A DNA stretch of 64,000 nt, taken from contig CAOJEH010000001.1 of assembly GCA_948434005.1 (NCBI GenBank), forward strand, positions 13,678-77,677. The letters run 5' to 3'. Position 1 is the stretch's first letter. Every line of letters starts with the position of its first letter. The notes below the pieces were generated by a model, which did no database searches, was not told where the DNA came from, and saw only the letters and a list, made by a program, of their open reading frames with translations. Source of the DNA: an uncultured Mycoplasmatota bacterium. Lineage in GTDB: Bacteria > Bacillota_I > Bacilli_A > RF39 > UBA660. Of this stretch, positions 7,871 to 56,862 are shown piece by piece. Position numbers and translations under genes: made by a program.

Positions 7871-10800
7871 CTATAATTTACTTATATTTTTCATAATATA
7901 TGCAAAAAGTTTAGATAAATCTGTTATTGTCACTCTATTATCATCATTAACGTCACTAGACTTTATATTTGGTAAATCAATACTATAATTATCATCTACT
8001 ATATACCTAAATAGCCTTGATATATCTGTTATACTAATTAATCCATCATTATTAATATCTCCTCTAACAGAAAGATAAATCTTATAGTTTTCACCATTAT
8101 TATCTATCATTTGAATATAACTACCTGTTGTTATAATATCAGTATCTTCAATTAAATTATTCTTAGAATTATATAAAGAATAGTGATAATTGCTATTAAA
8201 AGAGGTATTTTTAATAAATTCTTTTACTGTAGTTTGTACTCCTATATTATAAATTAAGTTATTTTCTATATCATACCCATAAACTTCTGTTTTAATTAAT
8301 CCATCTATTGACCATACTGCATATAAATCTATAGTTTCATCTTCATTTATTAAGTTGATAATCTCTTGCTGTTCACTATAAGTTTTTCCAGTACCATCCG
8401 GTTTTGTATTCCACCCAGAAAATTTATAATAACCATTTTTAAATGTATTTTCTAATAACTTATCACTAGCGTTAAAAGTAACACTTTGAGTAATTATATT
8501 ATCTTCATCTGTATTAGAATGATAATTTATATTATATTTAGAAACCTTTACAGATACAGGGAGAATCTTTTTTGTTCCATTTGATATACTAACTATAATA
8601 ATATTAGCACTACCTACAGCTTTTGCAGTTATATTTCCATTTTTATCTACTTCTAATATATCGTTATTATCTGAATAGTATACAACGCCCTTATTGAAAA
8701 TATTTCCTTCTACAGTAGATTCAATAACATAATTGTCACTATGCGATAAGTTTATAGTTAATTCAGAAATATTTGGTATTATATTTGAAACTTTATTAAC
8801 TACCTTTTTATTATTTATAGTTGGAAATGAATTATCAATTATCCAATTATTTTCAAAATTAGGCCAATTAAAGTTATTTTCTATATCATAAGCATCAATA
8901 TAATCTATCTTTTTTACATTTTCTTTAACCAATACATTTTGTGCGATAGTACCTTTAAAATAATTTATATTTTCAATATTAATGTTCTCATCAGTTAAAG
9001 GTGCTATAGATGAATCCCTACATACTAACTCATCACTACAATGAGAAGTATATTTTTCACCTGTTGATGATACTAATTCTTCTTTTCCTTCACAAGATAA
9101 ACATCCTATATTTCCTGTATTATAACCACTATTAACAAATAGATTACCTGTTATATTTACATTACCAGAAGAATCAAATGTCATATTATTTAACTGTCCT
9201 ACGCCTCCTGCTGCAAATATCTCTGCAGTAACATCTCCATAGTTAATAAAACTAGTAATATTAGCAGAATTAGTCTTTCCAATTAATCCCCCCACTATAT
9301 CTTGACTATCTACTTTAGCTGTATTTATAACTTTATCTAAAGTAGCCAATGTAGTTTCTCCACCAATTCCTCCTGCTATATTATTACCATTTACTATACC
9401 TTCATTGGCGCTATTTATTACACTAGCAATTTTTAAACTACCATAAATTCCACCTGATATTTTAGAGTAAATTTCTGAATTATTATAACAATTAGTAAAG
9501 CTTATAGGAACAAATGAATTAGAATTAGCTACTAGTCCCGCTGCTTTTCCTTCAGAAGAAATATTACTAGAAGTAATAGATACATTATCAATAATTATAT
9601 TTGATACATTACTATCTGCTTCTAAAGTTCCAACTAGTGCAGCCACGTTATTATTAGAAGAATTAACTATATTAAAATTTTGTAATGTAAGATTGCTAAA
9701 AATAGAATTATTATCATTCACTTTACTAACAGTAACTGAGTCAAATAAACCGTTACGTGTACTATATAATCCTGTTATCTTATGATTATCACCATCAAAT
9801 GTACCTTTAAAGTTTGTAATAGATTGCCAACCAGTACCACTATTATAAAATATTCCATTTTCATTTTGAGTATCATATGTAAGATCAATATCATTAGAAA
9901 GTTTATAAGAACTAGAGGTAGATGTTCTAATCAAATCTAAATCAGAAGGACTTTTTATAAGATATGGATTATCTATAGTTCCCTCTCCTTCTAAGGATAT
10001 ATATGGAGCTTCTATAATTAAAGAAGTTTCATCAAGATATTCTCCATTATGATATACCTCTATAATATACTCACCAGGTATTAACTTATTTGATACACTC
10101 ATAGATGCAATAACAAAGTCTCCTGATACAGCATTATCACTATAAGAATTAATATATTGAGATATATCTTTTCCATTTAAATCATATATCTTGTAATCTA
10201 ATGTTTCTCCCTCTGGTATACCATATACCTGAGATTCTATAGTAAAATCATAGCTAGGTACAATAACTTCTGTACTATAATCAACTGGTGAAGTAGTAAC
10301 ACTTGCTACACCATCACTATTTAAAAATAATTTAGGAGTTGATATATTTATAGGAGTAAGATAATCTGGATCTTCTATATGGAAAACACATTTATCTGAG
10401 CGCTCTAAATTTTTATCATATAAGTCTACTGTATACCATCCTTTTAAATCAATACCTACAGTATCTATTAATTTCCTGCCATTAGATGTCTTATAGTATA
10501 CTTTTACATTTCTATCAGTTGAATTAGAAAAAAATTTAAGTTTTGACATTCTTGAATCGATTGGTGCATTAAAAACTATCTTTTTTTGCTCTTTGCCCGA
10601 TACAGTAACATTTTCTAGTTTTGTATAATCAAGTTGATAATCCCATGTTCTATCTGCCATAGAAACCATTTTAGTCACTACAGCAGGCTCTACTGCTAAG
10701 CTATAGGGTAAATACAAGTATTTTTTTGCACTAGTATCTCCCCAAGAATTTTTTATAATCCACGACCCCTCTGTATTTTCGTGTATTACTGAGGCAGGAC

Positions 10801-18970: not shown

Positions 18971-20488
18971 TTATTTATTATCGATTCGCATAAATAATGG
19001 AGTTGGTTCATTTAATGAGTAACTATTATCAGTAATATAATTTAAACTATCATTATCATTATTGATTTGTTTTAATATTTCATCACTAGTATCAGGTAGA
19101 TATGGCTTTAACAAAAGAGCACAAACCCTTATTGATTCTAATAAATTATATATTACTGTTTCTAACTTATCCTGCATTGAAGGATTCTTTGCTAAAACCC
19201 ATGGCGTTGTTTCATCTATATATTTATTACTAATTCTTAATACATCAAATATTTCATCTATAGATGAACTTATTTCTAGTTTATCCATTTTTGCCTCTAT
19301 TGCAGAATCTAAATTATTTACTGCATTAATAAGATTTTTATCATATTCTGTTTGTTCATTTTTATTAGAAATATTACCATTAAAATATTTATTTCCCATA
19401 GATATAGTTCTTTGAACCAAATTTCCTAATACATTAGCTAAATCTCCATTTATTCTTTCTATTAATAATTCACGAGTTATATTACCATCACTAGAGAATG
19501 GGATTTCATGTAATAAATAATATCTAACAGCATCAACACCAAATTCTTTTACTAATTCATCAGCATAAATAACATTTCCCTTACTCTTACTCATTTTATC
19601 ATTATTCATTAATAACCATGGATGGCCAAATACTTTTTTTGGAAGGTCTAATCCTAATGAAAATAAGAAACATGGCCAATATATAGTATGAAACCTAATA
19701 ATGTCTTTTCCTATTAATTGAACATCTGCAGGCCAATACTTTTTAAATGTATCTGTAACATTATCAACATCATAACCAATATTAGTAATATAATTAGTAA
19801 GTGCATCTAGCCAAACATATACGATATGCTTATCATCAAAATCGACTGGTACTCCCCAATCAAATGATGTACGAGAAACACATAAATCTTGAAGACCTGG
19901 TTTAATAAAATTATTTAACATTTCATTTTTACGTGCAACAGGTTGAATAAAGTCTGGATGACTTTCTATATATTCTTCTAATTGTTTTTGATATTTTGAT
20001 AACCTAAAGAAATATGCTTCTTCTTTTCTCTCTTCTACTTCTCTACCACAATCGGGACAAGTGCCTTCTACTAATTGAGATTCAGTCCAAAAGGATTCGC
20101 AAGGAACACAATAAAGTCCCCTATATTCTCCTTTATAAATATCTCCTTTATCATACATTGTCTTAAAAATATGTTGCACTATTTTTTCATGATTAGTATC
20201 TGTTGTTCTAACAAAATTATCATAACTAGTATTCATAATATCCCAAATATCTTTTATTTCTAAAGATAATTTGTCTACATATTCTTTTGGACTAACGTTA
20301 TTTTCTTTTGCCTTTTTCTCTATTTTCTCTCCATGCTCATCTGTACCTGTTTGAAAATATACATCATATCCTTTCAATCTTTTATATCTTGCAATTGAAT
20401 CGGCTAAAACAATTTCGTAAGTGTTACCTATATGAGGTTTACCTGAGGTATATGCAATTGCAGTAAATATAGAAAAACTTTTTGCCAT
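18971..20488 (-). CDS. metG: Methionyl-tRNA synthetase (short form lacking the C-terminal tRNA-binding domain)
   Basis: HIGN (HIGH-type) motif PHIGNTYEIVLAD; KMSKS motif; 505 aa. Confidence 0.93.
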   Translation of the reverse strand: MAKSFSIFTAIAYTSGKPHIGNTYEIVLADSIARYKRLKGYDVYFQTGTDEHGEKIEKKAKENNVSPKEYVDKLSLEIKDIWDIMNTSYDNFVRTTDTNHEKIVQHIFKTMYDKGDIYKGEYRGLYCVPCESFWTESQLVEGTCPDCGREVEERKEEAYFFRLSKYQKQLEEYIESHPDFIQPVARKNEMLNNFIKPGLQDLCVSRTSFDWGVPVDFDDKHIVYVWLDALTNYITNIGYDVDNVTDTFKKYWPADVQLIGKDIIRFHTIYWPCFLFSLGLDLPKKVFGHPWLLMNNDKMSKSKGNVIYADELVKEFGVDAVRYYLLHEIPFSSDGNITRELLIERINGDLANVLGNLVQRTISMGNKYFNGNISNKNEQTEYDKNLINAVNNLDSAIEAKMDKLEISSSIDEIFDVLRISNKYIDETTPWVLAKNPSMQDKLETVIYNLLESIRVCALLLKPYLPDTSDEILKQINNDNDSLNYITDNSYSLNEPTPLFMRIDNK

Positions 20489-20494
20489 AATTTC

Positions 20495-20760
20495 ATCTCC
20501 TTTTTATTGAGGTTAATATTAACTATAGTATATTATGAAAATAAAAAAATATTATAACATAAGGACGAATTACTCCGCGGTTCCACCTTATTTTATAATA
20601 TCAATTATACTCTCAAATAGTTAACGCCTATATACGATCATACCTACATATCGATATGATGGTTCAAAAGCCATATTTTATAAATTATCTATATCTACTT
20701 TCACCAACATAGACTCTCTTTAATAGATACTATTTATAAAACTCTTTCTCACAACCTCTA
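20495..20760 (-). ncRNA. T-box riboswitch leader of metG
   Basis: On the minus strand the conserved T-box sequence AAGGTGGAACCGCGG is present (plus-strand CCGCGGTTCCACCTT at 20575-20589). Stem I base AAAGAGAG (plus CTCTCTTT at 20714-20721) is followed by GGTGAAAGTAG. A candidate AUG specifier lies in AAAAUAUGGC. I could not fold the terminator confidently by eye. Confidence 0.5.
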
Positions 20761-20787
20761 ATTGAAGCTATAATATCATATATTTTT

Positions 20788-33315: not shown

Positions 33316-35034
33316 CTATTTTATTTCTACTATATCTTTAAATAAACCTAACGGACTATCCTCTATATCTATGCTTTCTTCTTTTAGTGTATTTATAATT
33401 AAGTCAGGCTCTTTTATAATATCATACTTTTTACCATTTTTAGTATTATTAATGTATTCTTTTTTCAACTTATTCCAGTTATCTTTACTCACTATTGCAA
33501 TTTTTTTATCTGATTTAGTTAAATTATTATATATATCATTAAGTTTTTGCAAATTATTTATATTAGTATCCACTACTGATTCATATTCATAGCTTATTAT
33601 CATTCCTAAAGTACTAGAAGCTTCTATTGTAGCATTAAGAAGTTCTGAAACTATATAACCAATCTTTTGATCAAATACATAATCATTTAAAGAATTCATC
33701 AATTGCAAATCGTTTGTCTTTTCTGTTTTATCAGCTGTTGCTAAAACATTATTTACTCTAATCTTATTTATTTCAAGTATATTGGAAGATTCTACCAATT
33801 TACTTTCAGTAAATTCAGTATTGCTATCTTTTTCTTGTTGCTCCACTATCTGTTCCTCTTCTATTTTAGAATTTTCTTCAATATCAACTTTACTTGGTTC
33901 TGGTACTTCTATTTTTTCTTCTTTAGGTTGTTTTTCTTCATTTACTATCTTTTTTTCCACAGTTTTATCATCTTTTGGGAAATAATTTATTTCCTGGGGA
34001 ATATTTTTATGTTCATTAACAAAATTCAAAAACATTATTTCTATGTATATTTTTGGATTTCCATTCTTTTTTATATCGAACATTTTTTCGTTTATTAAAT
34101 TTGCTAAATGTTGATAAATTTCAATAGATTCTATTTCATCATTACCATTTATATAATAATTTACAATACTATTTCTTAATAATACCAACAATTGAACTAT
34201 TATTTCTACTAGATTCTTTCCACCATCACTATAAGATTTAATTTTACTTATAATTTCATTATTATTAAAAGATAAAATACTATTTTTAAAGTCCTCTAAT
34301 TCCTTTTCAGTTATCATATCATTTATTTCATAATAATCTTCTATTGTTATTTTATCACTCTTATAAGACGATAATTTATCAAGTACACCTAAAGAATCTC
34401 TTAATCCACCATCTGAGAATTCTGCAATTAATTCCAAAACTTTTTTATCTATTTCTATTTTTTCTTTTTTACATACTTCTTCTAGTTTTAATACTATGTT
34501 ATCAGTACTTATTCTTTTAAAAGAATAGCACTGGCACCTTGATATAATTGTATCAGATACCTTTTGTGGATCAGTAGTTGCTAAAATAAATATAACATGC
34601 TTAGGTGGTTCTTCTAAAGTCTTTAATAATGCATTAAATGCACCTGATGTAAGCATATGAACTTCATCTATTATATATACTTTATATTTCAACTCACTTG
34701 GTACTATATTTACCTTACTTTTTATTTCTCGAATTTCGTCTACACCATTATTAGAAGCCGCATCAATTTCGATTATATCCACACTATTTACAGATTTTTC
34801 ACAGTTTTCGCACTTTTCACAAGGATTTCCATCATTTGGATTTAAACAATTAACAGTTCGAGATAATATTTTTGCAATTGTTGTTTTACCTATACCTCTA
34901 GGTCCAAAAAACATATAAGCATGACTTATTTTATCGTTCTTTATTGAATTTTTTAAAGTTTTTATAACAAAATCTTGTCCAACTACATCATCAAAACATT
35001 TTGGTCTATATTTTCTATATAACGCTTGATACAC
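33316..35034 (-). CDS. dnaX: DNA polymerase III subunits gamma/tau
   Basis: Walker A GPRGIGKTT; zinc module CLNPNDGNPCEKCENC; SRC motif TIISRCQ; 572 aa. Confidence 0.95.
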   Translation of the reverse strand: MYQALYRKYRPKCFDDVVGQDFVIKTLKNSIKNDKISHAYMFFGPRGIGKTTIAKILSRTVNCLNPNDGNPCEKCENCEKSVNSVDIIEIDAASNNGVDEIREIKSKVNIVPSELKYKVYIIDEVHMLTSGAFNALLKTLEEPPKHVIFILATTDPQKVSDTIISRCQCYSFKRISTDNIVLKLEEVCKKEKIEIDKKVLELIAEFSDGGLRDSLGVLDKLSSYKSDKITIEDYYEINDMITEKELEDFKNSILSFNNNEIISKIKSYSDGGKNLVEIIVQLLVLLRNSIVNYYINGNDEIESIEIYQHLANLINEKMFDIKKNGNPKIYIEIMFLNFVNEHKNIPQEINYFPKDDKTVEKKIVNEEKQPKEEKIEVPEPSKVDIEENSKIEEEQIVEQQEKDSNTEFTESKLVESSNILEINKIRVNNVLATADKTEKTNDLQLMNSLNDYVFDQKIGYIVSELLNATIEASSTLGMIISYEYESVVDTNINNLQKLNDIYNNLTKSDKKIAIVSKDNWNKLKKEYINNTKNGKKYDIIKEPDLIINTLKEESIDIEDSPLGLFKDIVEIK

Positions 35035-35075: not shown

Positions 35076-35513
35076 CTATTTTCTTTTATTTTTAAAGAAA
35101 TCTACAATTATTTTTTTACATTCCTTCTCACATATTTTTTCTTCTATATTAACATTTGAATTTATATCTTTTTCCACAAGTATTTTATTACTTATTTCAT
35201 TATTTTTATTATCCACACCATAATATATTTTAGAAATTCTAGCTTGTTTTATAGCACTAGAACACATAGGGCATGGTTGAAGAGTTACATATAGTTCACA
35301 GCCATTTAGTCTCCAATTTTTTAATTTTTTTGACGCTTTTCTTATAGCTAATAATTCGGCATGATACAAAACACTCTTATATTTTTCCTTTAAATTATGT
35401 GTTTTGGCAATAATTTTATCATTTTTAACTATTACACAACCTACAGGAACCTCATTTTTATCAAAGGATTTTTTAGCTTCATTTAAAGCTATTTTCATAT
35501 ATTCTTCTTTCAT
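35076..35513 (-). CDS. tadA: tRNA-specific adenosine deaminase TadA. The ORF track extends to 35543; the likely start is ATG 35511-35513 (MKEEYMKIALNEAKK), preceded by GGAGTG.
   Basis: CMP/dCMP deaminase zinc motifs HAELLAI and PCPMCSSAI. Confidence 0.9.
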   Translation of the reverse strand: MKEEYMKIALNEAKKSFDKNEVPVGCVIVKNDKIIAKTHNLKEKYKSVLYHAELLAIRKASKKLKNWRLNGCELYVTLQPCPMCSSAIKQARISKIYYGVDNKNNEISNKILVEKDINSNVNIEEKICEKECKKIIVDFFKNKRK

Positions 35514-35527
35514 TACTTTCACTCCAA

Positions 35528-35615
35528 AAATAAAAGTGCACATAAGTGTTGATTGTTAAAGCTGCTATCTTCCGATCCTGACTTGTTTCCAATACACTTA
35601 TTGCACCAATAACAT
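35528..35615 (-). ncRNA. ffs: Small (4.5S-type) signal recognition particle RNA
   Basis: The minus-strand transcript contains the domain IV consensus GUCAGGAUCGGAAGAUAGCAGC (plus-strand GCTGCTATCTTCCGATCCTGAC, 35561-35582). It is flanked by a long imperfect helix: 5' GGUGCAAUAAGUGUAUUGG pairs with 3' CAAUCAACACUUAUGUGCAC. It ends in a U-run that abuts the tadA RBS. Synteny with tadA-dnaX matches B. subtilis scr. Confidence 0.65.
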
Positions 35616-35651
35616 TGTATTACATTACCTAATAAAATACAAGTATATTTT

Positions 35652-35723
35652 ATGTTTCACGTGAAACATACTAAAACTATATAAAATTTTTATAAAAAAA
35701 TACAATGTTTCACGTGAAACATC
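35652..35723. promoter_or_regulatory. parS: Two perfect parS centromere sites (TGTTTCACGTGAAACA) in tandem, 54 bp apart
   Basis: The 18-bp perfect palindrome ATGTTTCACGTGAAACAT occurs at 35652-35669 and 35706-35723; the 16-mer core matches the Firmicute parS consensus TGTTNCACGTGAAACA exactly. Confidence 0.8.
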
Positions 35724-35774
35724 ACATTTTAAATACTATTTTATTTCCCGGGAAATATTTTTTATATGAAATAT

Positions 35775-38243
35775 CTACTGAGTTACCTCTGCTTCTTGTT
35801 CTTCTATAGCAGTTTCTTCTTCAATTTCTTTTTCCACAAGTGCTACGGTAGAGACTTTTTGATTATCTTTTAGATTTATTAATCTAACACCTTGTGTAGC
35901 TCTTTTTAATACTGAAATTTGCGATAATGGCATTCTCATAATAATTCCACTATCTGTAATTATCATTATATCATTATCTTCTATAGCATCTTTATCAACA
36001 CATTTTAATGCAACCATCATACCATTTTTATCTGTTATATTTAAAGCTTTAACACCTTTACTACCTCTATGTGTTAACCTATATTCCTCTATAGGAGATT
36101 GTTTACCATAACCATTTTCAGTTACAATCAATACTAATTGCTCTGGTTTTATAACTTCACTACCAACAACAAAATGTTCTCCCAAGTCCATACCTTTGAC
36201 ACCTGAGGTATTTCTTCCCATAGCTCTTATTTCAGTTTCTATAAATCTTACCATTCGACCGTTATTAGCACCTATTACTATTTCGTCTTCTCCACTTGTC
36301 TTTTTAACAGCAATTAATTCGTCATCTTCTTTTAATAAGATAGATATTTTTCCACCTTTTCTAATATTATCGAATTCGCTAATAGCAGTTCTCTTAACTA
36401 ATCCCTTCTTCGTTGTAAACATTAAGTATTTACTAGATTCTTCTGTTCCATCCACAGAAATTATAGAACGTATGTTTTCGTCTTTATCAAGTGATAACAA
36501 GTTAATTATTGGTAAACCTTTGGATTGTCTTCCAAATTCTGGAATTTCATATCCTTTTAATCTATATACTCTACCTTTATTAGAGAAGAATAAAATATAA
36601 TCATGTGTTTTTGTTGATAATAAGTGTTCTACTATATCTTCTTCATTAGTAGACATTCCTTTTATACCAACTCCTCCTCTATTTTGAACTCTATAAGTAT
36701 CAGATTTCAAACGCTTAATATATCCTTTATTTGTTAGCGTTACTATAATATCTTCAACTGGAATTAAAGATTCATCTTCAATGTATTCTATTGCTGTCAT
36801 ATCAATATTAGTACGTCTTTCATCAGCAAATTTTGCTTTTATTTCAAGCATTTCTTCTTTTATTATATCTAATACTTTAGCTTCACTTGCCAAAATTCCT
36901 TTTAGTCTTTCAATCTCTTCTAAAAGTTCCTTTAATTCATTTTCAATTTTATCTCTTTCTAAGCCAGTTAATCTCCTTAATTTCATTTCAAGAATTGCTT
37001 GAGCTTGTTTTTCTGTTAGTTCAAATTTAGTCATCAAGCCATTCATTGCAATTTCATCACTTTTAGAACCTCTTATTAGTTTTATAATTTCATCTATATG
37101 ATCTAGAGCTATCTTCAATCCTTCTAATATATGCGCTCTAGCTTCATCTTTATTTAAATCAAATTTAGTACGTCTTATAACTATTTCTTTTTGATAATCA
37201 ACATACTTTGATATTATATCTTTTAATCCTAATGTCTTTGGTACTCCCTGATCAAGCATTAAGAAAATGATTCCATATGTTGTTTGAAATGATGTATGTT
37301 TATATAAGTTATTTAATACAACTTGAGGATTAGCATCTTTCTTTAATGTAATTGTTATCTTAATACCATCTTTCAAATCAGTATGATAATCAGATATACC
37401 ATCAATTACTTTATTGTGTACTAAATCTGCTACTTTATTTTTTAATTCTAAAGTATTAACACCATAAGGAACTTCATCGACAATAATGTAATGTTTACCC
37501 TTTTCTTCCTCAATTCTTGCTTTACTTCTTATAGTAATACTACCTCTACCCGTTTCATAAGCCTTTTTAATACCACTATTACCTAAAATTGTAGCACCAG
37601 TTGGAAAATCAGGACCTTTTATATATTGCATTAATCCATCTAAATCAATCTCCGGATTATCTATATAAGCTATACAACCATCAATTACTTCACCTAAATT
37701 ATGAGGTGGAATATTTGTTGCCATTCCTACTGCAATACCCATAGTTCCATTTACTAGTATATTAGGAAATCTAGAAGGTAATATTACAGGTTCTTTTTCA
37801 CTTTCATCAAAGTTTGGTGCAAAATCTACAGTATCTTTATTTATATCTCTAAGTAATTGTAAAGATATTTTTGAAAGACGGGATTCTGTATAACGCATTG
37901 CTGCTGCCCCATATCCTTCAATATTACCAAAGTTACCATGTCCATCCACTAACATATTTCGATATGAGAAATCTTGTGCCATTCTAACCATTGCTTCATA
38001 AATACTTGAATCACCATGAGGATGATATTTACCCATAACATCTCCGACAATTCTTGCACTCTTTTTATGTGGTTTGTCAGGAGTATAACCGGATTCATAC
38101 ATAGAATATAAGATACGTCTATGTACTGGTTTTAATCCATCACGTAAATCTGGTAAAGCACGTGCTACAATTACACTCATAGAATATTCTAAAAAAGAAT
38201 CTTTTACTTCATTAACTATATTATTTTGTTCTAATCTATCCAT
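35775..38243 (-). CDS. gyrA: DNA gyrase subunit A
   Basis: 822 aa; active-site region AAMRYTE; QRDR-like [17 protein letters not shown]; C-terminal beta-pinwheel repeats. Confidence 0.97.
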
Positions 38244-38255
38244 ATCCTTTACCTC

Positions 38256-40187
<1,932 letters not shown>

Positions 40188-41423: not shown

Positions 41424-41858
41424 TTATCTATCTCTCATTATTAAATCTAATCTAGAAGCTCTTAATATTTGATTTTCTATAGTTCTTCTAGATACAGGTA
41501 TTAATATTGATATATCATTATTGAATATTATATTAGTTGAATTATAATCTGCAGCTTCTATTTTTTTAATATTTTTTAAAGATATCCAACAACAATCCTC
41601 TGCAGATGGTGAATTAGTTGGAAAGAATATTATATTTTTACTATTTTCAACTATAATTGGAACTTTATAATTTATATCAAGTATTGCTTTAGTTCCCTCT
41701 TTTCTTCCTTCGTATGATGACCCAAAATATTTACAACTATAATCCATTATTTCATATGGTGTATTATTTATAACATATTCTTTGCTATCTTCTAATACCT
41801 TACTCTTCTCTTCTTTAGGTAATATTGCTAAAGTACCTTCATTAATTTCATAATTCAT
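41424..41858 (-). CDS. comK: ComK-family competence transcription factor homologue (short, 144 aa)
   Basis: Alignable with B. subtilis ComK over most of its length: EINEGTLAILPKEE / YEVNGATIAVLPEE; DYSCKYFGSSYEGRKEGT / DRSCRFFGSSYAGRKAGT; VPIIVENSKNIIFFPTNS / PPIMVDPSNQIFLFPTLS; CCWISLKNIK / CGWISHVHVK; IENQILRASRL / FENQVYRTAWL. It lacks the ~45 C-terminal residues of ComK. Confidence 0.7.
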   Translation of the reverse strand: MNYEINEGTLAILPKEEKSKVLEDSKEYVINNTPYEIMDYSCKYFGSSYEGRKEGTKAILDINYKVPIIVENSKNIIFFPTNSPSAEDCCWISLKNIKKIEAADYNSTNIIFNNDISILIPVSRRTIENQILRASRLDLIMRDR

Positions 41859-43224: not shown

Positions 43225-44619
43225 TTATTTATTAACAACACCCTCTCCTATGTCTTTTTTTAATTTATCAATTATTTTTGCTAAATCTGGGTTGATTTTT
43301 ATTTCTTGATCTATTTTTTCAACTGAATGCATCACTGTAGAATGATCTTTTCCGCCAAATTCAGTCCCTATTTTAGGAAATGATTCACTGGTCATATTTC
43401 TACATAAATACATTGCAATTTGTCTAGGAAATGAAATATTAGAACTTCTCTTTTTACTTCTAATATCTTCTACTGTTATTTGAAAATATTCAGAAACAAT
43501 CTTTTGAATTCTATGAACATCATTTTTTTCAGATATTCCTTTACTTATAAAATCTTTTAAAGCTTCTATCGCTAAATCAAGATTTATATCTACTCCACCC
43601 ATTATGGTAGAATAAGCAATTAATCTAGTAATAGAACCTTCTAGCTGTCTAACATCTGTACCAATATTAGAAGCAATATATTCTATTACATCTTCAGGTA
43701 TTTCTTTTTCAAAATTACCTGCTGCTATTTTCTTTCTTATTATTTCTGTTCTAAGAGAAAAATCAGGTGGAAAAACATTAACTGTTAATCCCCAACAAAA
43801 CCTGGTTCTTAAACGATCTTCTAATAATTTTAAATCATCAGGAGATCTATCAGATGAAATAATAATTTGCTTACTATCATTATATAATGTATTAAAGGTG
43901 TGAAAAAATTCTTGTTGAGTTTGTGTTGCTCCTCCTAAAAACTGAATATCATCAATTATTAAAACATCAACATTTCTATATTTATTTTTAAAGAAATCAA
44001 CATAATTAAAGTTTGTTCCTTTAGCATCTCTTTTATTTATACCAATAAAGTCTTGAATAAATTGATCGCTTGTTACATATAAAACTTTTCTATTACTATT
44101 AGCCATAATATAATTACCAATAGCATGCATTAAATGGGTTTTACCAAGTCCACTATTTCCATATATAAATAATGGATTATACATATTGCCAGGATTCTCA
44201 GCGACTGATAAAGCTGCAGCATGAGCAAATTTATTACTATTTCCAACAATAAAATTATCAAAAGAATATTTATTCTTCAAATTAGACTGAAATGAATTAG
44301 GAGGGACACCAGAATTATTATCCTCAATCATATCATTATCTATTAAAACTCTTTCTACTGTTTCTTTTTTTATTTCACTTTCTAATATAAATTCTAATTC
44401 AAAATTAGTACCCGTAATATTATTTAATTTTTCTATAATTAGGGAAGAATATTTATCAGCTAAATGTTTTTTATGTATTTGCATAGGAACAACAATAAAT
44501 GCTTTGCCATCTTTTAATTCATGTAGTTTTGTATCATTAAACCATGTATCAAAAGCTAGTGCAGATAAATCATCCTTTATTTGTGATAAAAAGTTGTTCC
44601 ATAATACATCCACATTCAT
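43225..44619 (-). CDS. dnaA: Chromosomal replication initiator DnaA. The ORF track begins at a TTG at 44637; the likely start is ATG 44617-44619 (MNVDVLWNNFL), with GGGGAG upstream.
   Basis: Walker A GNSGLGKTHLMHA; Walker B LIIDDIQF; sensor and Arg finger; C-terminal DNA-binding signature (RQIAMYLCRNMTSESFPKIGTEFGGKDHSTVMHS). Confidence 0.97.
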   Translation of the reverse strand: MNVDVLWNNFLSQIKDDLSALAFDTWFNDTKLHELKDGKAFIVVPMQIHKKHLADKYSSLIIEKLNNITGTNFELEFILESEIKKETVERVLIDNDMIEDNNSGVPPNSFQSNLKNKYSFDNFIVGNSNKFAHAAALSVAENPGNMYNPLFIYGNSGLGKTHLMHAIGNYIMANSNRKVLYVTSDQFIQDFIGINKRDAKGTNFNYVDFFKNKYRNVDVLIIDDIQFLGGATQTQQEFFHTFNTLYNDSKQIIISSDRSPDDLKLLEDRLRTRFCWGLTVNVFPPDFSLRTEIIRKKIAAGNFEKEIPEDVIEYIASNIGTDVRQLEGSITRLIAYSTIMGGVDINLDLAIEALKDFISKGISEKNDVHRIQKIVSEYFQITVEDIRSKKRSSNISFPRQIAMYLCRNMTSESFPKIGTEFGGKDHSTVMHSVEKIDQEIKINPDLAKIIDKLKKDIGEGVVNK

Positions 44620-44639
44620 ACAACCATCTCCCCACAAGA

Positions 44640-44930
44640 AAAGTAATTAAGTTTATTCTACATTAAATTGTGTAAAAAATAAATAGAAAAACAAAATTTT
44701 CTTTTTTCCACAAAAAAATAACAAAATTATCAACAATCAAAATCAAGTGAAAGGGTCTTTTAAAAAGTTTTCCACATTTTCCACAAATTTTATTAATCAA
44801 CTGTTATTTTTATTTTCCACATACTTGTGGATTTTGTGAAAACAAAAAAAACTAAAAATATAGTATATTTATTTGACAAAACATCATATTTACTATTATA
44901 ATAATGTAGATTTATGTCTGGAGGTGGAAT
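44640..44930. promoter_or_regulatory. oriC: oriC DnaA-box cluster between dnaA and rpmH, including the rpmH sigma-A promoter
   Basis: TTTTCCACA (1 mismatch to TTATCCACA) at 44704-44712, 44768-44776, 44777-44785 (direct tandem) and 44814-44822; inverted TGTGGATTT at 44826-44834. Consensus promoter TTGACA (44873-44878), 18-nt spacer, TATAAT (44897-44902). GGAGGTGG RBS before rpmH. Confidence 0.75.
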
Positions 44931-53485: not shown

Positions 53486-55099
53486 ATGCAGCAAGGAGAA
53501 GAAGTAGTATATCTATATTTGGATGATATTATTCCTAATAGGTTTCAACCTAGAGAAGTATTTGATGAAAGACCTTTAAAAGAATTAGCTGTTTCTATAA
53601 AAGAACATGGAGTAATACAACCAATTATAGTAAGAAAAGTAAATGATAAATATGAAATAATAGCTGGTGAACGTAGATATAAAGCTTCTGCTTTAGCTGG
53701 ATTAACTAAGATACCTGCAATTATTAGAGATTTAGATGATAAAGAAACTTCTAAAGTAGCATTGTTAGAAAATTTACAAAGAAAAAATTTGAATCCATTA
53801 GAAGAAGCTAAAACATATCAAAAAATATTAGAAATAGATGAAATGACCCAAGAAGAGTTAGCAAAAACAATGGGAAAAAGTCAATCAGCAGTATCAAATA
53901 AGATAAGACTTCTATCATTATCTGAAGAGGTTCAACAAGCGTTATTAAAAGAAGAAATATCAGAAAGACATGCAAGAGCATTATTAAATATAGATGATAA
54001 AGAAGAACAAAACAAATTATTAAAAGAAATTATAGATAATAAGATGACAGTAAGACAATTAGAAGCAAAAATTAAAGGAGAAACTGTTTCAAATCAATCA
54101 ATAAACGAAGTATCATCTGAAATTACACCAAATATAGCTATTCCAGAAAATAGCGAAGATATAGGTTCTCAAACCAACTTCTTATCAAGTAGCCCATTAG
54201 TACCAAATTTTGGAGAAAATGAATCAGTAAATCAAAATAATCCAATGGCTTCAATTTTTAATAATATAGAGCAAAAAGAAGAACCATTAATAGTGAATAC
54301 TAATACTGAACCAAATTCTATGATGAATCAGTCAGAAGAAGATAAGGAGCCTTTAATAACAATGCCTAATGAAAATAATATAAATCAATCTGATGATTCA
54401 CAATCTAGTGAACCATTAATAATGATGTCAACAAATTCTAATGAATCATCAAATAATAGCAACGATAATAGTAATACTGAGAATAATAAATTTATAAATT
54501 TCGGAGAAATAGATGATGATGAAGATGATGAACCTGCAGATGAAAAGTTTTACGAAGATACTATTAATGATAGTCCTAGCATTTCATTTGGAGCAGGGCC
54601 AATATCAGCTAATAATGCAATTGACTTAGATGATTTAAAACAAAATACCAAAGATATTAATATCAAAGATGAGAACGCACCAGGCGCAGATTTAGATAGT
54701 CTATTAAGAATTAATAATAATGATTTATCAATTAATAATTCTAATACAGAAGAAAACGATAGTTTTAAGTTTTTTTCTCCAGCTGCAGAAGCAATAAAAG
54801 AAAGTGAAAATAATGAAAAACCAAAAAATAGCGAAGACTACTTTAAAGCTCCAGACTTGATGGGGATAGATTTACCAGGTGAAGTTCCTACATATAATAC
54901 AAATAATGTTCCATTAGCAAGTAATATAGATACTAAATCTATAGAAACAGAATCAAAACAAAATAGCTTAGAAAATGCTATAAATATTATAAATAATTCT
55001 ATAAAGGAAATAGAACAATCAGGCATTAAAGTAGAAAAGGATGAAATGAATTTAAATAATTCTTATCAAGTAATAATCAAATTAGAAAAAGACAACTAA
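53486..55099 (+). CDS. noc: Noc/ParB-family protein with a long low-complexity internal region (positional Noc orthologue)
   Basis: N-terminal ParB box IPNRFQPREVFDE...GVIQPIIVR...EIIAGERRYKAS...ALLENLQRKNL; HTH QEELAKTMGKSQSAVSNKIRLL. C-terminus LENAINIINNSIKEIEQSGIKVEKDEMNLNNSYQVIIKLEK aligns with the B. subtilis Noc C-terminus ...[33 protein letters not shown]. Between them lie ~320 aa of N/S/E/D-rich sequence with three E/K/S-EPLI repeats. Confidence 0.8.
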   Translation: MQQGEEVVYLYLDDIIPNRFQPREVFDERPLKELAVSIKEHGVIQPIIVRKVNDKYEIIAGERRYKASALAGLTKIPAIIRDLDDKETSKVALLENLQRKNLNPLEEAKTYQKILEIDEMTQEELAKTMGKSQSAVSNKIRLLSLSEEVQQALLKEEISERHARALLNIDDKEEQNKLLKEIIDNKMTVRQLEAKIKGETVSNQSINEVSSEITPNIAIPENSEDIGSQTNFLSSSPLVPNFGENESVNQNNPMASIFNNIEQKEEPLIVNTNTEPNSMMNQSEEDKEPLITMPNENNINQSDDSQSSEPLIMMSTNSNESSNNSNDNSNTENNKFINFGEIDDDEDDEPADEKFYEDTINDSPSISFGAGPISANNAIDLDDLKQNTKDINIKDENAPGADLDSLLRINNNDLSINNSNTEENDSFKFFSPAAEAIKESENNEKPKNSEDYFKAPDLMGIDLPGEVPTYNTNNVPLASNIDTKSIETESKQNSLENAINIINNSIKEIEQSGIKVEKDEMNLNNSYQVIIKLEKDN

Positions 55100-55193: not shown

Positions 55194-55982
55194 ATGGGAA
55201 AGATAATTTCTTTAGTAAATCAAAAAGGTGGAGTAGGAAAAACAACTACAAGTATTAATCTTTCTGCGTCCCTTGCAGCACTAAATCAGAAAGTATTATT
55301 AATAGATTTAGATCCACAGGGAAACACTACAACAGGTGTAGGTATAAATAAAGGTGATATAGAAACAAGTATTTATGACGTTTTAACTGGAAAGTGTACT
55401 ATAGAACAAGCAATAGTACAAACAAAATATAAAAATCTATATGTAATACCTGCAACTATAAATTTAGCTGGATTAGATATCGAACTATTAGAAAAAAGTC
55501 AAACTGAACCAGGTTTTTCTAAAGGGACTCAATTAAAAAGTCACATAGAAAAAATAAATCTTAATTATGATTTTATTATAATAGATTGTCCTCCATCATT
55601 AGGTTTAATTACAACAAATGCCTTAACAGCATCTAATTCAGTAATAATTCCAGTACAATGTGAATTCTTTGCATTAGAAGGAATTATGCAATTATTAAAT
55701 ACTATAATGTTAGCCCAAAAAACATTAAATCCTAATTTAGATATAGAAGGAGTCCTTTTAACAATGTTAGATTCCAGAACTAATTTAGGCTTCGAAGTAG
55801 TAGAGGATATAAGAAAGTTCTTTAAAGAGAGAGTTTATAATACAATTATACCAAGATTAATTAGATTAACAGAAGCTCCTTCACATGGAGAACCAATTAT
55901 TGCATATGATCCAAAAAGTAGAGGATCAGAAGCATATATGAATTTAGCTAAGGAAGTGATTGAAAGAAATGGAAAACAATAA
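55194..55982 (+). CDS. soj: Chromosome partitioning ATPase ParA/Soj
   Basis: Deviant Walker A NQKGGVGKTTT; 262 aa. Confidence 0.95.
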   Translation: MGKIISLVNQKGGVGKTTTSINLSASLAALNQKVLLIDLDPQGNTTTGVGINKGDIETSIYDVLTGKCTIEQAIVQTKYKNLYVIPATINLAGLDIELLEKSQTEPGFSKGTQLKSHIEKINLNYDFIIIDCPPSLGLITTNALTASNSVIIPVQCEFFALEGIMQLLNTIMLAQKTLNPNLDIEGVLLTMLDSRTNLGFEVVEDIRKFFKERVYNTIIPRLIRLTEAPSHGEPIIAYDPKSRGSEAYMNLAKEVIERNGKQ

Positions 55983-56862
55983 TTTAAAAAGAAGAGCATT
56001 GGGGAGAGGGTTGGAAGAATTATTTAATAATGAACCTATAGATTATAATAAAATGGAAGAGAAGATAATTACAGAAACACCAAAAGAACAAATTATAAAA
56101 ATATCTTTAGATGATTTAAGAAGTAATCCATATCAACCAAGACAAGTCTTTGATCAAAACGCCTTAGATGAGTTAGCTGCCTCTATAAAGGAACATGGAG
56201 TTTTTCAACCTATAATTGTTAAAAAAAGCATAAAAGGTTATGAAATAATAGCAGGAGAGCGTAGAGTTAAAGCTTCAAAAATAGCAGGATTAAAAGAAAT
56301 ACCAGCAATAGTTAGAGAATTTTCTGATAATGAGATGATGGAAATAGCATTATTAGAAAATTTACAAAGGGAAAATTTAAACTCAATAGAAGAAGCTATG
56401 GCATATAAACAATTACTAATTAATTTAAAATTAACACAAGAACAATTAGCAGAAAGATTAGGTAAGAGTAGAAGCCACATTACAAATATGATAGGTTTAT
56501 TAAATTTACCAAAACAAACACAAGATCTAATAAGTAGTAAAAAAATAACTATGGGTCACGCTAGAGTATTAAGTAAATTAGAAGATGAAGAAAAAATAAA
56601 CTCTTTAGCAAGCCAAATAATTTTAGATGGACTAAGCGTTAGACAATTAGAAGATATAACATCTAGTAAGGATGAATTTGAAAGAAAGAATAAAATTACT
56701 AGAGTAAAACAAGTAAAAAATCATGATTATGATTATTTAGAAGAAGAATTATCAGAAAAACTAGGAACAAAAGTAAAAGTAAAAAATACAAAATTGGAAA
56801 TTACTTTTGCTAATAGTAATGATTTAAATAGAATATTAGAAATAATGAATCTAAATAAATAA
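55960..56862 (+). CDS. spo0J: Chromosome partitioning protein ParB/Spo0J
   Basis: ParB boxes RSNPYQPRQVFD and GERRVKASKIAGL; HTH QEQLAERLGKSRSHITNMIGLL; C-terminal KLGTKVKVKNTKLEITFANSNDLNRILEIM. Confidence 0.95.
   Translation: MKEMENNNLKRRALGRGLEELFNNEPIDYNKMEEKIITETPKEQIIKISLDDLRSNPYQPRQVFDQNALDELAASIKEHGVFQPIIVKKSIKGYEIIAGERRVKASKIAGLKEIPAIVREFSDNEMMEIALLENLQRENLNSIEEAMAYKQLLINLKLTQEQLAERLGKSRSHITNMIGLLNLPKQTQDLISSKKITMGHARVLSKLEDEEKINSLASQIILDGLSVRQLEDITSSKDEFERKNKITRVKQVKNHDYDYLEEELSEKLGTKVKVKNTKLEITFANSNDLNRILEIMNLNK

Follow-up and report, generated by a model that had tools for sequence, protein, structure and literature searches.

Tandem parS sites and a Noc-binding site beside oriC of an uncultured Mycoplasmatota bacterium: the probable smallest form of a clade-wide composite array

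Background

The parS sites of B. subtilis are spread across the region of the chromosome near the origin, one of them lying inside spo0J, and the sopC centromere of F consists of tandem 43-bp units, each of which carries a 16-bp inverted repeat. ParB and Noc are the model pair for the duplication of a DNA-binding protein followed by a change in specificity, and they are treated as proteins with separate sites and separate jobs. The Noc-binding site, NBS, differs from parS at two positions in each half-site (PMC7383237, PMC8429893). The specificity is set by four residues, R173, T179, A184 and G201 in ParB and Q, K, K and R in Noc. ParBs have an invariant R173 and G201, and Noc-type binding needs a lysine at only one of the positions 179 and 184 (PMC7383237). 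B. subtilis Noc binds the membrane via an N-terminal amphipathic helix, and nucleoid occlusion is impaired when the helix is missing (PMC8429893). NBS have been described only as scattered over the origin-proximal chromosome, and replication control has been reported for the S. aureus Noc (PMC5540599). Clusters of parS sites are also known, parS1-4 of P. aeruginosa and those of C. glutamicum and C. crescentus being examples, and clustering has been suggested to give robustness to the partition complex (PMC7022226).

The DNA considered here, designated the window, is a 64-kb origin-proximal stretch from an uncultured Mycoplasmatota bacterium. An initial annotation had reported two perfect parS sites in tandem between gyrA and the SRP RNA gene, and had overlooked an NBS beside them, a Noc-type ParB paralogue encoded at 53486-55099 and the array context found throughout the clade. 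The parS pair by itself is an ordinary, textbook feature that extends a known pattern by one organism. The reading preferred here, to which we assign a probability of about 0.8, is that these are genuine parS and NBS sequences that make up the smallest form (NBS-parS-parS) of a clade-wide composite array, the geometry of which argues for co-occupancy. The clade comprises uncultured low-GC gut and rumen Firmicutes, with the array located in the gaps between gyrA, ffs, tadA and dnaX.

The locus resembles several described systems and departs from each of them. Relatives such as the one designated L034 have 44-bp tandem units with one palindrome each, as in sopC of F, but the arrays are chromosomal, carry the chromosomal parS sequence and are mostly heterotypic, and the window itself has only two parS sites. 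The window shares with B. subtilis the identical 16-bp parS sequence (PMC7383237), an origin-proximal location, a ParB with the R..G residues and the CTP motif, a ParA partner, and the position of parA-parB downstream of gidB and noc. It differs in that a stretch of +/-30 kb around oriC has just two parS sites, which are 53 bp apart in a single gap and are paired with an NBS. Similarly, the 16-bp NBS is identical to that of B. subtilis and S. aureus, and the paralogue has the residues Q, K and R and occupies the noc position in the order gidB-noc-parA-parB. Unlike Noc, however, it has a long disordered linker and no N-terminal amphipathic helix (PMC8429893), and the NBS cluster next to parS, in helical phase with it, rather than being scattered. 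As in the known parS clusters (PMC7022226), several closely spaced parS sites lie next to oriC, but those clusters have one type of site and one protein, whereas here there are two types of site, phased with respect to each other, and two CTP-clamp paralogues. No description of side-by-side or phased parS/NBS arrays was found in the literature searched, coverage of which was incomplete, and the phased composite array seems to be a variant that has not been described before.

The parS pair and its surroundings

The genes in this part of the window are all on the minus strand and point away from the origin, which lies at about 44.7-44.9 kb. The order is dnaA (43225-44637), dnaN, a small ORF of the ComK family, recF, gyrB (38256-40184), gyrA (35775-38243), a 160-bp gap that contains the sites, ffs, tadA, dnaX (33316-35034), ybaB and recR. 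The upstream boundary of the gap, gyrA, was identified by the Pfam families DNA_topoisoIV (8e-164) and DNA_gyraseA_C, and the small SRP RNA gene, ffs (35525-35614, minus strand), by Rfam RF00169 with 53.3 bits against a gathering score of 40. The tadA gene (35076-35513, minus strand) matched Pfam deaminase families. Its likelier start is the ATG at 35513, with GGAG at 35525-35522 and a 145-aa call in identical contigs, although the listed ORF runs to 35543. The origin is marked by a cluster of five DnaA-box-like 9-mers (44704-44821, plus strand) adjoining dnaA, and the sign of the GC skew switches at about 44-46 kb. Across the origin from these genes are gidA, gidB, a 537-aa ParB-family gene, parA and parB. 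The ParA/Soj ATPase (55194-55982, plus strand) matched the Pfam families AAA_31 (1e-69), CbiA and ParA.

A sequence scan of the window located the core TGTTTCACGTGAAACA, without mismatch, at 35653-35668 and 35706-35721. Both cores are embedded in the same perfect 18-bp palindrome, ATGTTTCACGTGAAACAT, for which no strand is assigned; parS-1 (35652-35669) is the copy nearest ffs and parS-2 (35705-35722) is the second. Both palindromes match the parS consensus TGTTNCACGTGAAACA, and the identity of the two cores with the Firmicute consensus is exact, so that the reported tandem pair between gyrA and the SRP RNA gene was borne out, flanking genes included. The centres, however, are 53 bp (5.05 helical turns) apart and not 54 bp as first given. 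Further copies of ATGTTTCACGTGAAACAT or TGTTTCACGTGAAACA were absent from the 64-kb window even when three mismatches were allowed; the two copies are both in the gyrA-ffs gap and there is none inside parB. Given the base composition of the window (25% G+C), 1.35e-5 perfect copies would be expected in 64 kb by chance and the matches are exact, and the observation is therefore real and not a chance occurrence. Measured from the DnaA-box cluster and the GC-skew switch, the sites are 9.0-9.2 kb away, which, together with the position of dnaA, agrees with the earlier estimate of their distance to oriC, about 9 kb.

The base adjoining the parS core was A or T in 98% of 618 oriented copies from relatives, indicating that the conserved unit is 18 bp. 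The commonest variant, TGTTCCACGTGAAACA, accounted for 62 of the 90 copies with one mismatch, and the altered position is the N of the published consensus. The assignment of the window palindromes as parS sites is well supported, and they very probably function as binding sites for ParB. They belong to a known kind, since the palindrome, the origin-proximal location, the cognate ParB and ParA and the conservation were all found.

The Noc-binding site and the two ParB paralogues

The same gap contains a perfect NBS, TATTTCCCGGGAAATA, at 35742-35757 (no strand assigned). It lies 17 nt beyond the stop codon of gyrA, and its centre is 36 bp (3.4 turns) from that of parS-2. It is the sole perfect copy in the window, where 1.35e-5 copies would be expected by chance. 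A decayed NBS with two mismatches, TATTTCCTGGGGAATA (33988-34003, no strand assigned), was found inside dnaX; the strains that are 99.5% identical to the window have one mismatch here, and many relatives carry a perfect NBS at the corresponding position.

The protein encoded at 55960-56862 on the plus strand, which had been proposed to be Spo0J/ParB, is 300 aa long and indeed has the Pfam domains ParB_N, HTH_ParB and ParB_C. Its best solved relative was B. subtilis Spo0J (6sdk, 1e-61). The sequence has an N-terminal LGRGL, the motif GERRVKA, corresponding to the GERRxxA CTP motif, and GKSRS...MGHAR, which supplies the R..G residues of parS-type specificity. The protein is thus predicted to be a parS-binding CTP clamp.

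The second paralogue, 537 aa long (53486-55099, plus strand), had Noc structures as its best solved relatives (7nfu, 1e-63; 7ol9, 1e-53). It reads GKSQS..NK..LLSL..SERHAR, that is, Q, K, S and R at the positions occupied by QKKR in Noc, and the Q, K and R were invariant in nine Noc-type homologues. The two paralogues are 51% identical over the N-terminal and DNA-binding domains, while their C-terminal parts are unrelated. With R..G in the 300-aa ParB and Q, K, S, R in the 537-aa protein, the window encodes one predicted reader for each type of site, and the NBS is probably bound by the Noc-type paralogue.

The N-terminal amphipathic membrane-targeting helix, 10 residues long in Noc, is absent from the window protein. 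Its alignment to the Noc structures sets in at residue 2-5 of the window protein, opposite residue 23-28 of the structures, so that its start is about 22 residues later than that of the Noc proteins of G. thermoleovorans and B. subtilis. The gene has no overlooked start further upstream from which a membrane helix could be translated, since an in-frame stop lies 12 codons before the ATG. Moreover, nine Noc-type homologues from long contigs have the same short N-terminus, M-D-x-EVV-x-LYLDDIIPNRFQPR. The late start of the alignment, the upstream stop codon and the short start of the homologues together indicate a Noc-type protein that has no membrane helix. The homologues are 297-345 aa long; the 537 aa of the window protein result from an expanded low-complexity linker of roughly 300 aa, rich in N, S, E and D, that is followed by a conserved C-terminal domain of about 45 aa. 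Since the specificity residues and the NBS are present and the helix is missing, the protein is probably Noc-like at the DNA level and should not be filed as a nucleoid occlusion factor.

The locus in relatives

Relatives were collected with a TadA scan of one genome per species (GTDB representatives) that returned 54 loci. Sixteen of these share the gene order from dnaA to recR and constitute the syntenic set, with GyrA up to 83% identical to that of the window. The metagenome-assembled genomes in this set carry labels such as 'uncultured Bacilli bacterium' and 'uncultured Clostridia bacterium', and some relatives are labelled 'Tenericutes bacterium'. About 20 kb of origin-proximal sequence was covered per relative.

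All 16 syntenic loci have parS or near-parS sequences in the gyrA-ffs-tadA-dnaX gaps. With up to one mismatch allowed, 61 parS sites fell between -2.0 and +2.3 kb of ffs and none in the remaining 229 kb, and the comparison with relatives therefore placed the sites at the same locus in every case. The NBS were also concentrated there, 21 inside this interval and 11 outside, corresponding to an approximately 6.7-fold higher density inside. A perfect or one-mismatch NBS was present in the gyrA-ffs gap of 7 of the 16 loci, and between -2.0 and +2.3 kb of ffs in 9. Neither parS nor NBS was found in the 38 non-syntenic tadA loci (638 kb), which came from Clostridium, Gastranaerophilales and others.

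The number and arrangement of the sites varied. The window's order, NBS-parS-parS, recurs in L011, while in L019 NBS and parS alternate nine times within 1 kb, and in L012 a 2-kb gap with no ORF of at least 40 aa contains eight parS and three NBS. A repeat search showed that the L012 array is composed of three units of about 600-640 bp that are 65-88% identical, with every site perfect. Tandem Repeats Finder, which has a period limit of 500, saw only short AT repeats in the long arrays for that reason. A lineage represented by L034, L040 and L055 has no NBS and carries the variant TGTTCCACGTGAAACA in tandem units of 44-50 bp; in L034 a 44-bp unit with one parS-type palindrome is repeated four times. 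In L192 and L193, the DnaA of which is 90-91% identical to that of the window, the spacers could not be aligned and the order and spacing of the sites had changed, with the cores intact. That sites remain perfect in diverging surroundings, here as in L012, points to selection acting on them. The NBS copies had A-rich and T-rich flanks. Palindromes composed of one parS and one NBS half-site, a sign of heterodimers, were essentially absent (one in 1.7 Mb), which fits two separate homodimeric readers.

Within the species, ten Logan contigs were 100% identical to the window, and two strains 99.5% identical to it had kept both parS sites and the NBS, with one SNP in the gap, in the promoter spacer. 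This variation was too small for the same-species contigs to serve as a test of selection.

The co-occurrence of NBS and the noc-type gene was followed in DnaA-centred loci of about 21 kb, using single contigs that span the gidB side and the array. A ParB-family gene lies directly after gidB in four NBS-bearing species, the window's own (three samples, L189-L191), L193, L194 and L195. The residues Q, K, S and R were read in the window, L194 and L195, and in the latter two the gene is followed by parA and an R..G parB. Three species of the NBS-free lineage (L185, L187/L188 and L197) had no ParB-family gene after gidB and no NBS in the 21 kb. There, noc-parA-parB is replaced by a 384-456-aa protein for which no Pfam match was obtained at E values up to 1. 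The pattern of presence and absence is consistent with a link between NBS and the noc-type gene but is not clean, since parA-parB is also missing from its canonical position in the NBS-free lineage and so must lie elsewhere in those genomes.

Helical phasing of parS and NBS

A metagenome scan for a perfect NBS-N{5,35}-parS, which used no gene information and was thus blind to context, returned at least 120 stretches with NBS-parS dyads. Of the 120 listed, 116 carry gyrA, tadA and/or dnaX beside the sites, and the remaining four are on contigs of no more than 1.9 kb that had no gene match. In this clade, the dyad is thus peculiar to this one place in the chromosome. The G+C content of the listed stretches was mostly 19-31%, with one contig at 48%. 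Among the matches listed, the largest arrays had 17-18 sites (L084, L141), and there were 326 further NBS copies with at most one mismatch.

The start-to-start distances of neighbouring parS and NBS peaked at 26-29, 35-37, 45-47, 55-58, 67-69, 77-78 and 88 bp. Identical spacers were merged, followed by spacers of equal length that were at least 70% identical, leaving about 240 classes. The periodogram of these dereplicated spacers had a peak at 10.5-10.75 bp with a power of 17-18, compared to a mean of 2-3 and a maximum of 9-11 in the null obtained with a jitter of +/-5 bp. The mean phase was 0.48 turn (p<0.001). The phasing also held for spacings of more than 51 bp, which are not forced by the scan pattern (p about 0.002; 0.011 with perfect sites only). 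These tests are not fully independent, since the arrays are related and partly duplicated, and dereplication at 70% reduces this dependence but does not remove it. The same spacing analysis gave no periodicity for neighbouring parS-parS or NBS-NBS pairs. The 36 bp (3.4 turns) between NBS and parS-2 in the window is on the main spacing peak; some dyads are off phase, for example that of L011 at 73 bp. Centres that are n+1/2 turns apart face opposite sides of the DNA, an arrangement that argues for simultaneous occupancy by both proteins.

The predicted ffs promoter

The alignment of the 75 nt upstream of ffs from 17 loci revealed a footprint, TTGnnn-17-TAnaAT, about 7 nt before a conserved (G)TGCAA, in all 17, the spacer being 16 nt in one. 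In the window, the predicted promoter (35614-35642, minus strand) has a -35 hexamer TTGTAT at 35642-35637, a 17-nt spacer and a -10 hexamer TACAAT at 35619-35614, with a start near 35607. A scan with consensus promoters and terminators found no minus-strand ffs promoter and no terminator between gyrA and ffs; it missed the promoter because only 8 of 12 positions match. The first parS site had been thought to overlap the -35 region. The footprint did not support this, since the edge of the parS-1 core, 35653, is 10 bp upstream of the -35 hexamer and the core spans approximately -46 to -61 from the predicted start, so that parS-1 abuts the promoter without overlapping it. In 11 of the 17 loci the proximal site and the -35 hexamer are 4-15 bp apart, the site being upstream, even where the gap is 1-2 kb long.

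Discussion

We infer the binding events, the loading of clamps, their co-occupancy and any downstream role from the mechanisms described for ParB and Noc (PMC7053999, PMC8429893, PMC7333895). Most likely, dimers of the 300-aa ParB would nucleate on both parS sites, close as CTP clamps and slide onto the flanking DNA. The resulting partition complex, about 9 kb from oriC, would be acted on by ParA/Soj, and in known systems SMC is recruited as well. The NBS is the most likely loading site for the Noc-type paralogue encoded beside parA-parB. A dimer of that protein would nucleate on the NBS, on the side of the helix facing away from parS, and the geometry of the dyad suggests that both proteins are bound together. 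The candidate purposes of such an arrangement are mutual roadblocks that confine the clamps, a mixed condensate, or an origin-linked role, for example in replication control. A genuine functional coupling of ParB and the Noc-type protein is a tentative proposal. Equally tentative is the suggestion that ParB and a helix-less paralogue derived from Noc co-assemble on the half-turn dyads to form a two-protein centromere beside oriC.

The sites might instead be independent of one another, an ordinary parS pair and an ordinary NBS that are both origin-enriched and share scarce intergenic space with no coupling. The genomes are compact, homotypic neighbours are unphased, and 11 of the 32 NBS in the species-representative loci are off the array, including the conserved one inside dnaX. 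However, this explanation, which we consider unlikely, leaves the half-turn phasing of heterotypic neighbours (p<0.001), seen also beyond the range forced by the scan, and the location of 116 of the 120 listed context-blind dyads at one locus out of account, and space is not limiting, in that ORF-free gaps reach 1-2 kb and are taken up by sites (L012, L019). It is scarcely credible that the sites belong to a dispersed repeat or miniature mobile element with incidental palindromes. No other copies occur in the 64 kb, or off the locus in the 229 kb of the relatives, and conservation is limited to the 16-18-bp cores while the flanks diverge, although growth by tandem duplication, as in the fourfold 44-bp unit of L034 and the threefold 600-640-bp unit of L012, is what such an element might display.

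Two further explanations place the function of the sites in transcription or in RNA. The sites may have some effect on transcription, and they could serve as operators through which ParB, the Noc-type protein or both regulate SRP RNA and tadA-dnaX from a position just upstream of the ffs promoter. The close approach of the proximal site to the -35 hexamer in 11 of the 17 loci is in keeping with this, and one account gives a precedent in P. aeruginosa, where ParB in excess represses promoters beside parS3 and parS4 (PMC5521831). As the main function of the array, regulation is nevertheless improbable: the window site overlaps neither the -35 nor the -10 hexamer, and most sites of the arrays are far from promoters, or between ffs and tadA, after tadA or inside dnaX. 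Alternatively, transcription might read through from gyrA and the palindromes might fold into hairpins, ending or stabilising the transcript. The gyrA-ffs interval yielded no canonical terminator, a T run follows parS-2 on the transcribed strand, and the two palindromes can pair as an 18-bp stem (MFE -35.3 kcal/mol, z = -4.0), a trivial result of two identical palindromes pairing with each other. An RNA element would not account for the invariance of all 16-18 positions, would-be loop included, with no covariation, or for the free variation of site number, order and spacing between close relatives. Moreover, the sequences are those of two experimentally defined protein-binding sites, and an RNA-level element is very improbable.

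The preferred reading, a composite array of parS and NBS, brings together two proteins that have been considered apart. Hundreds of natural loci have both types of site adjacent at a fixed chromosomal address, and half-integer helical-turn spacing usually signals proteins that are bound simultaneously. If the co-assembly of ParB and the Noc-type paralogue proved to be true, it would be the first time that two CTP-clamp paralogues were seen to share a loading array in nature, and the job of the Noc-type protein would be in origin segregation, in cohesion or in the control of replication, and not in nucleoid occlusion at the membrane. The array offers a system for testing how two CTP sliding clamps affect one another, by cooperation, blocking or sorting, and allows the role of a Noc-like protein to be tested apart from membrane binding. 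It is also a sequence signature of the origin region for a large group of uncultured gut bacteria.

Noc-type paralogue and other genes

The Noc-type paralogue (53486-55099, plus strand), the ParB-family protein predicted to read the Noc-binding sites (NBS), was 537 residues long because a linker of about 300 residues, of low complexity and rich in N, S, E and D, separated the DNA-binding domain from a C-terminal domain that is conserved and some 45 residues long. Its homologues had 297-345 residues or, on other contigs, 457-477 residues. The N-terminal amphipathic helix of Noc was missing from the window protein and from all homologues seen.

A small ORF between dnaN and recF (41424-41858) had a precomputed Pfam match to ComK (PF06338), as did its equivalents in all of the relatives L185-L197. 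In Bacillus, this position is usually held by an S4-like RNA-binding gene. A T-box leader (20558-20761, minus strand; Rfam, 109 bits) was located upstream of a 505-residue ORF (18971-20488).

The tadA start and the gyrA-ffs gap

The tadA ORF as listed, starting at 35543, overlapped the 3' end of ffs, the small SRP RNA gene. The ATG at 35513 is the likelier start; it was preceded by GGAG at 35525-35522, and tadA was called as a protein of 145 residues on contigs identical to the window. The two genes are probably co-transcribed. A search of the gyrA-ffs gap (35615-35774) gave no intrinsic terminator. Were this gap transcribed, pairing of the two parS palindromes, which are identical, would give an 18-bp stem (MFE -35.3 kcal/mol, z -4.0).

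Sites within dnaX and the NBS-free lineage

In many relatives, a perfect NBS was conserved within the dnaX coding sequence, approximately 1.6-1.75 kb downstream of ffs (L012, 11624; L014, 11527; L192, 20795; L193, 20774; L194, 21232; and further loci). The window copy (33988-34003) had two mismatches, and that of strains 99.5% identical to the window had one. The array of L012 carried an additional conserved motif, TTTAAATTTTAATTATAGATG, roughly 25-35 nt in length and repeated between its parS and NBS sites (8065-8107, 8705-8747, 9302-9344 and 9728-9779). This motif may represent a promoter or a further binding site.

The lineage that includes L034, L040, L055 and L185 had no NBS and lacked noc-parA-parB after gidB, where an unannotated gene of 384-456 codons was found instead. 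At the dnaX position where relatives have an NBS, there were two to three parS-type sites. A 44-50-bp tandem repeat, resembling a plasmid iteron centromere, was present between ffs and tadA (L034, 9840-10000; likewise in L040, L055 and L185), with TGTTCCACGTGAAACA in every unit.

Distribution of the array

Contigs L001-L010 and L189, from eleven different SRA runs, were 100% identical to the window over as much as 21.4 kb (L189); a single strain, or a clone of very recent origin, recurs across many public datasets. The window arrangement, NBS-parS-parS-tadA-dnaX, also occurred in L178 (6295-6434), a contig whose G+C content of 48% greatly exceeded that of the other loci (19-31%). In L196, whose DnaA was 85% identical to that of the window, gyrA was followed by unrelated genes rather than by ffs-tadA-dnaX, and both parS and NBS were absent from its 21 kb. 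The array seems to travel with ffs-tadA-dnaX and not with gyrA.
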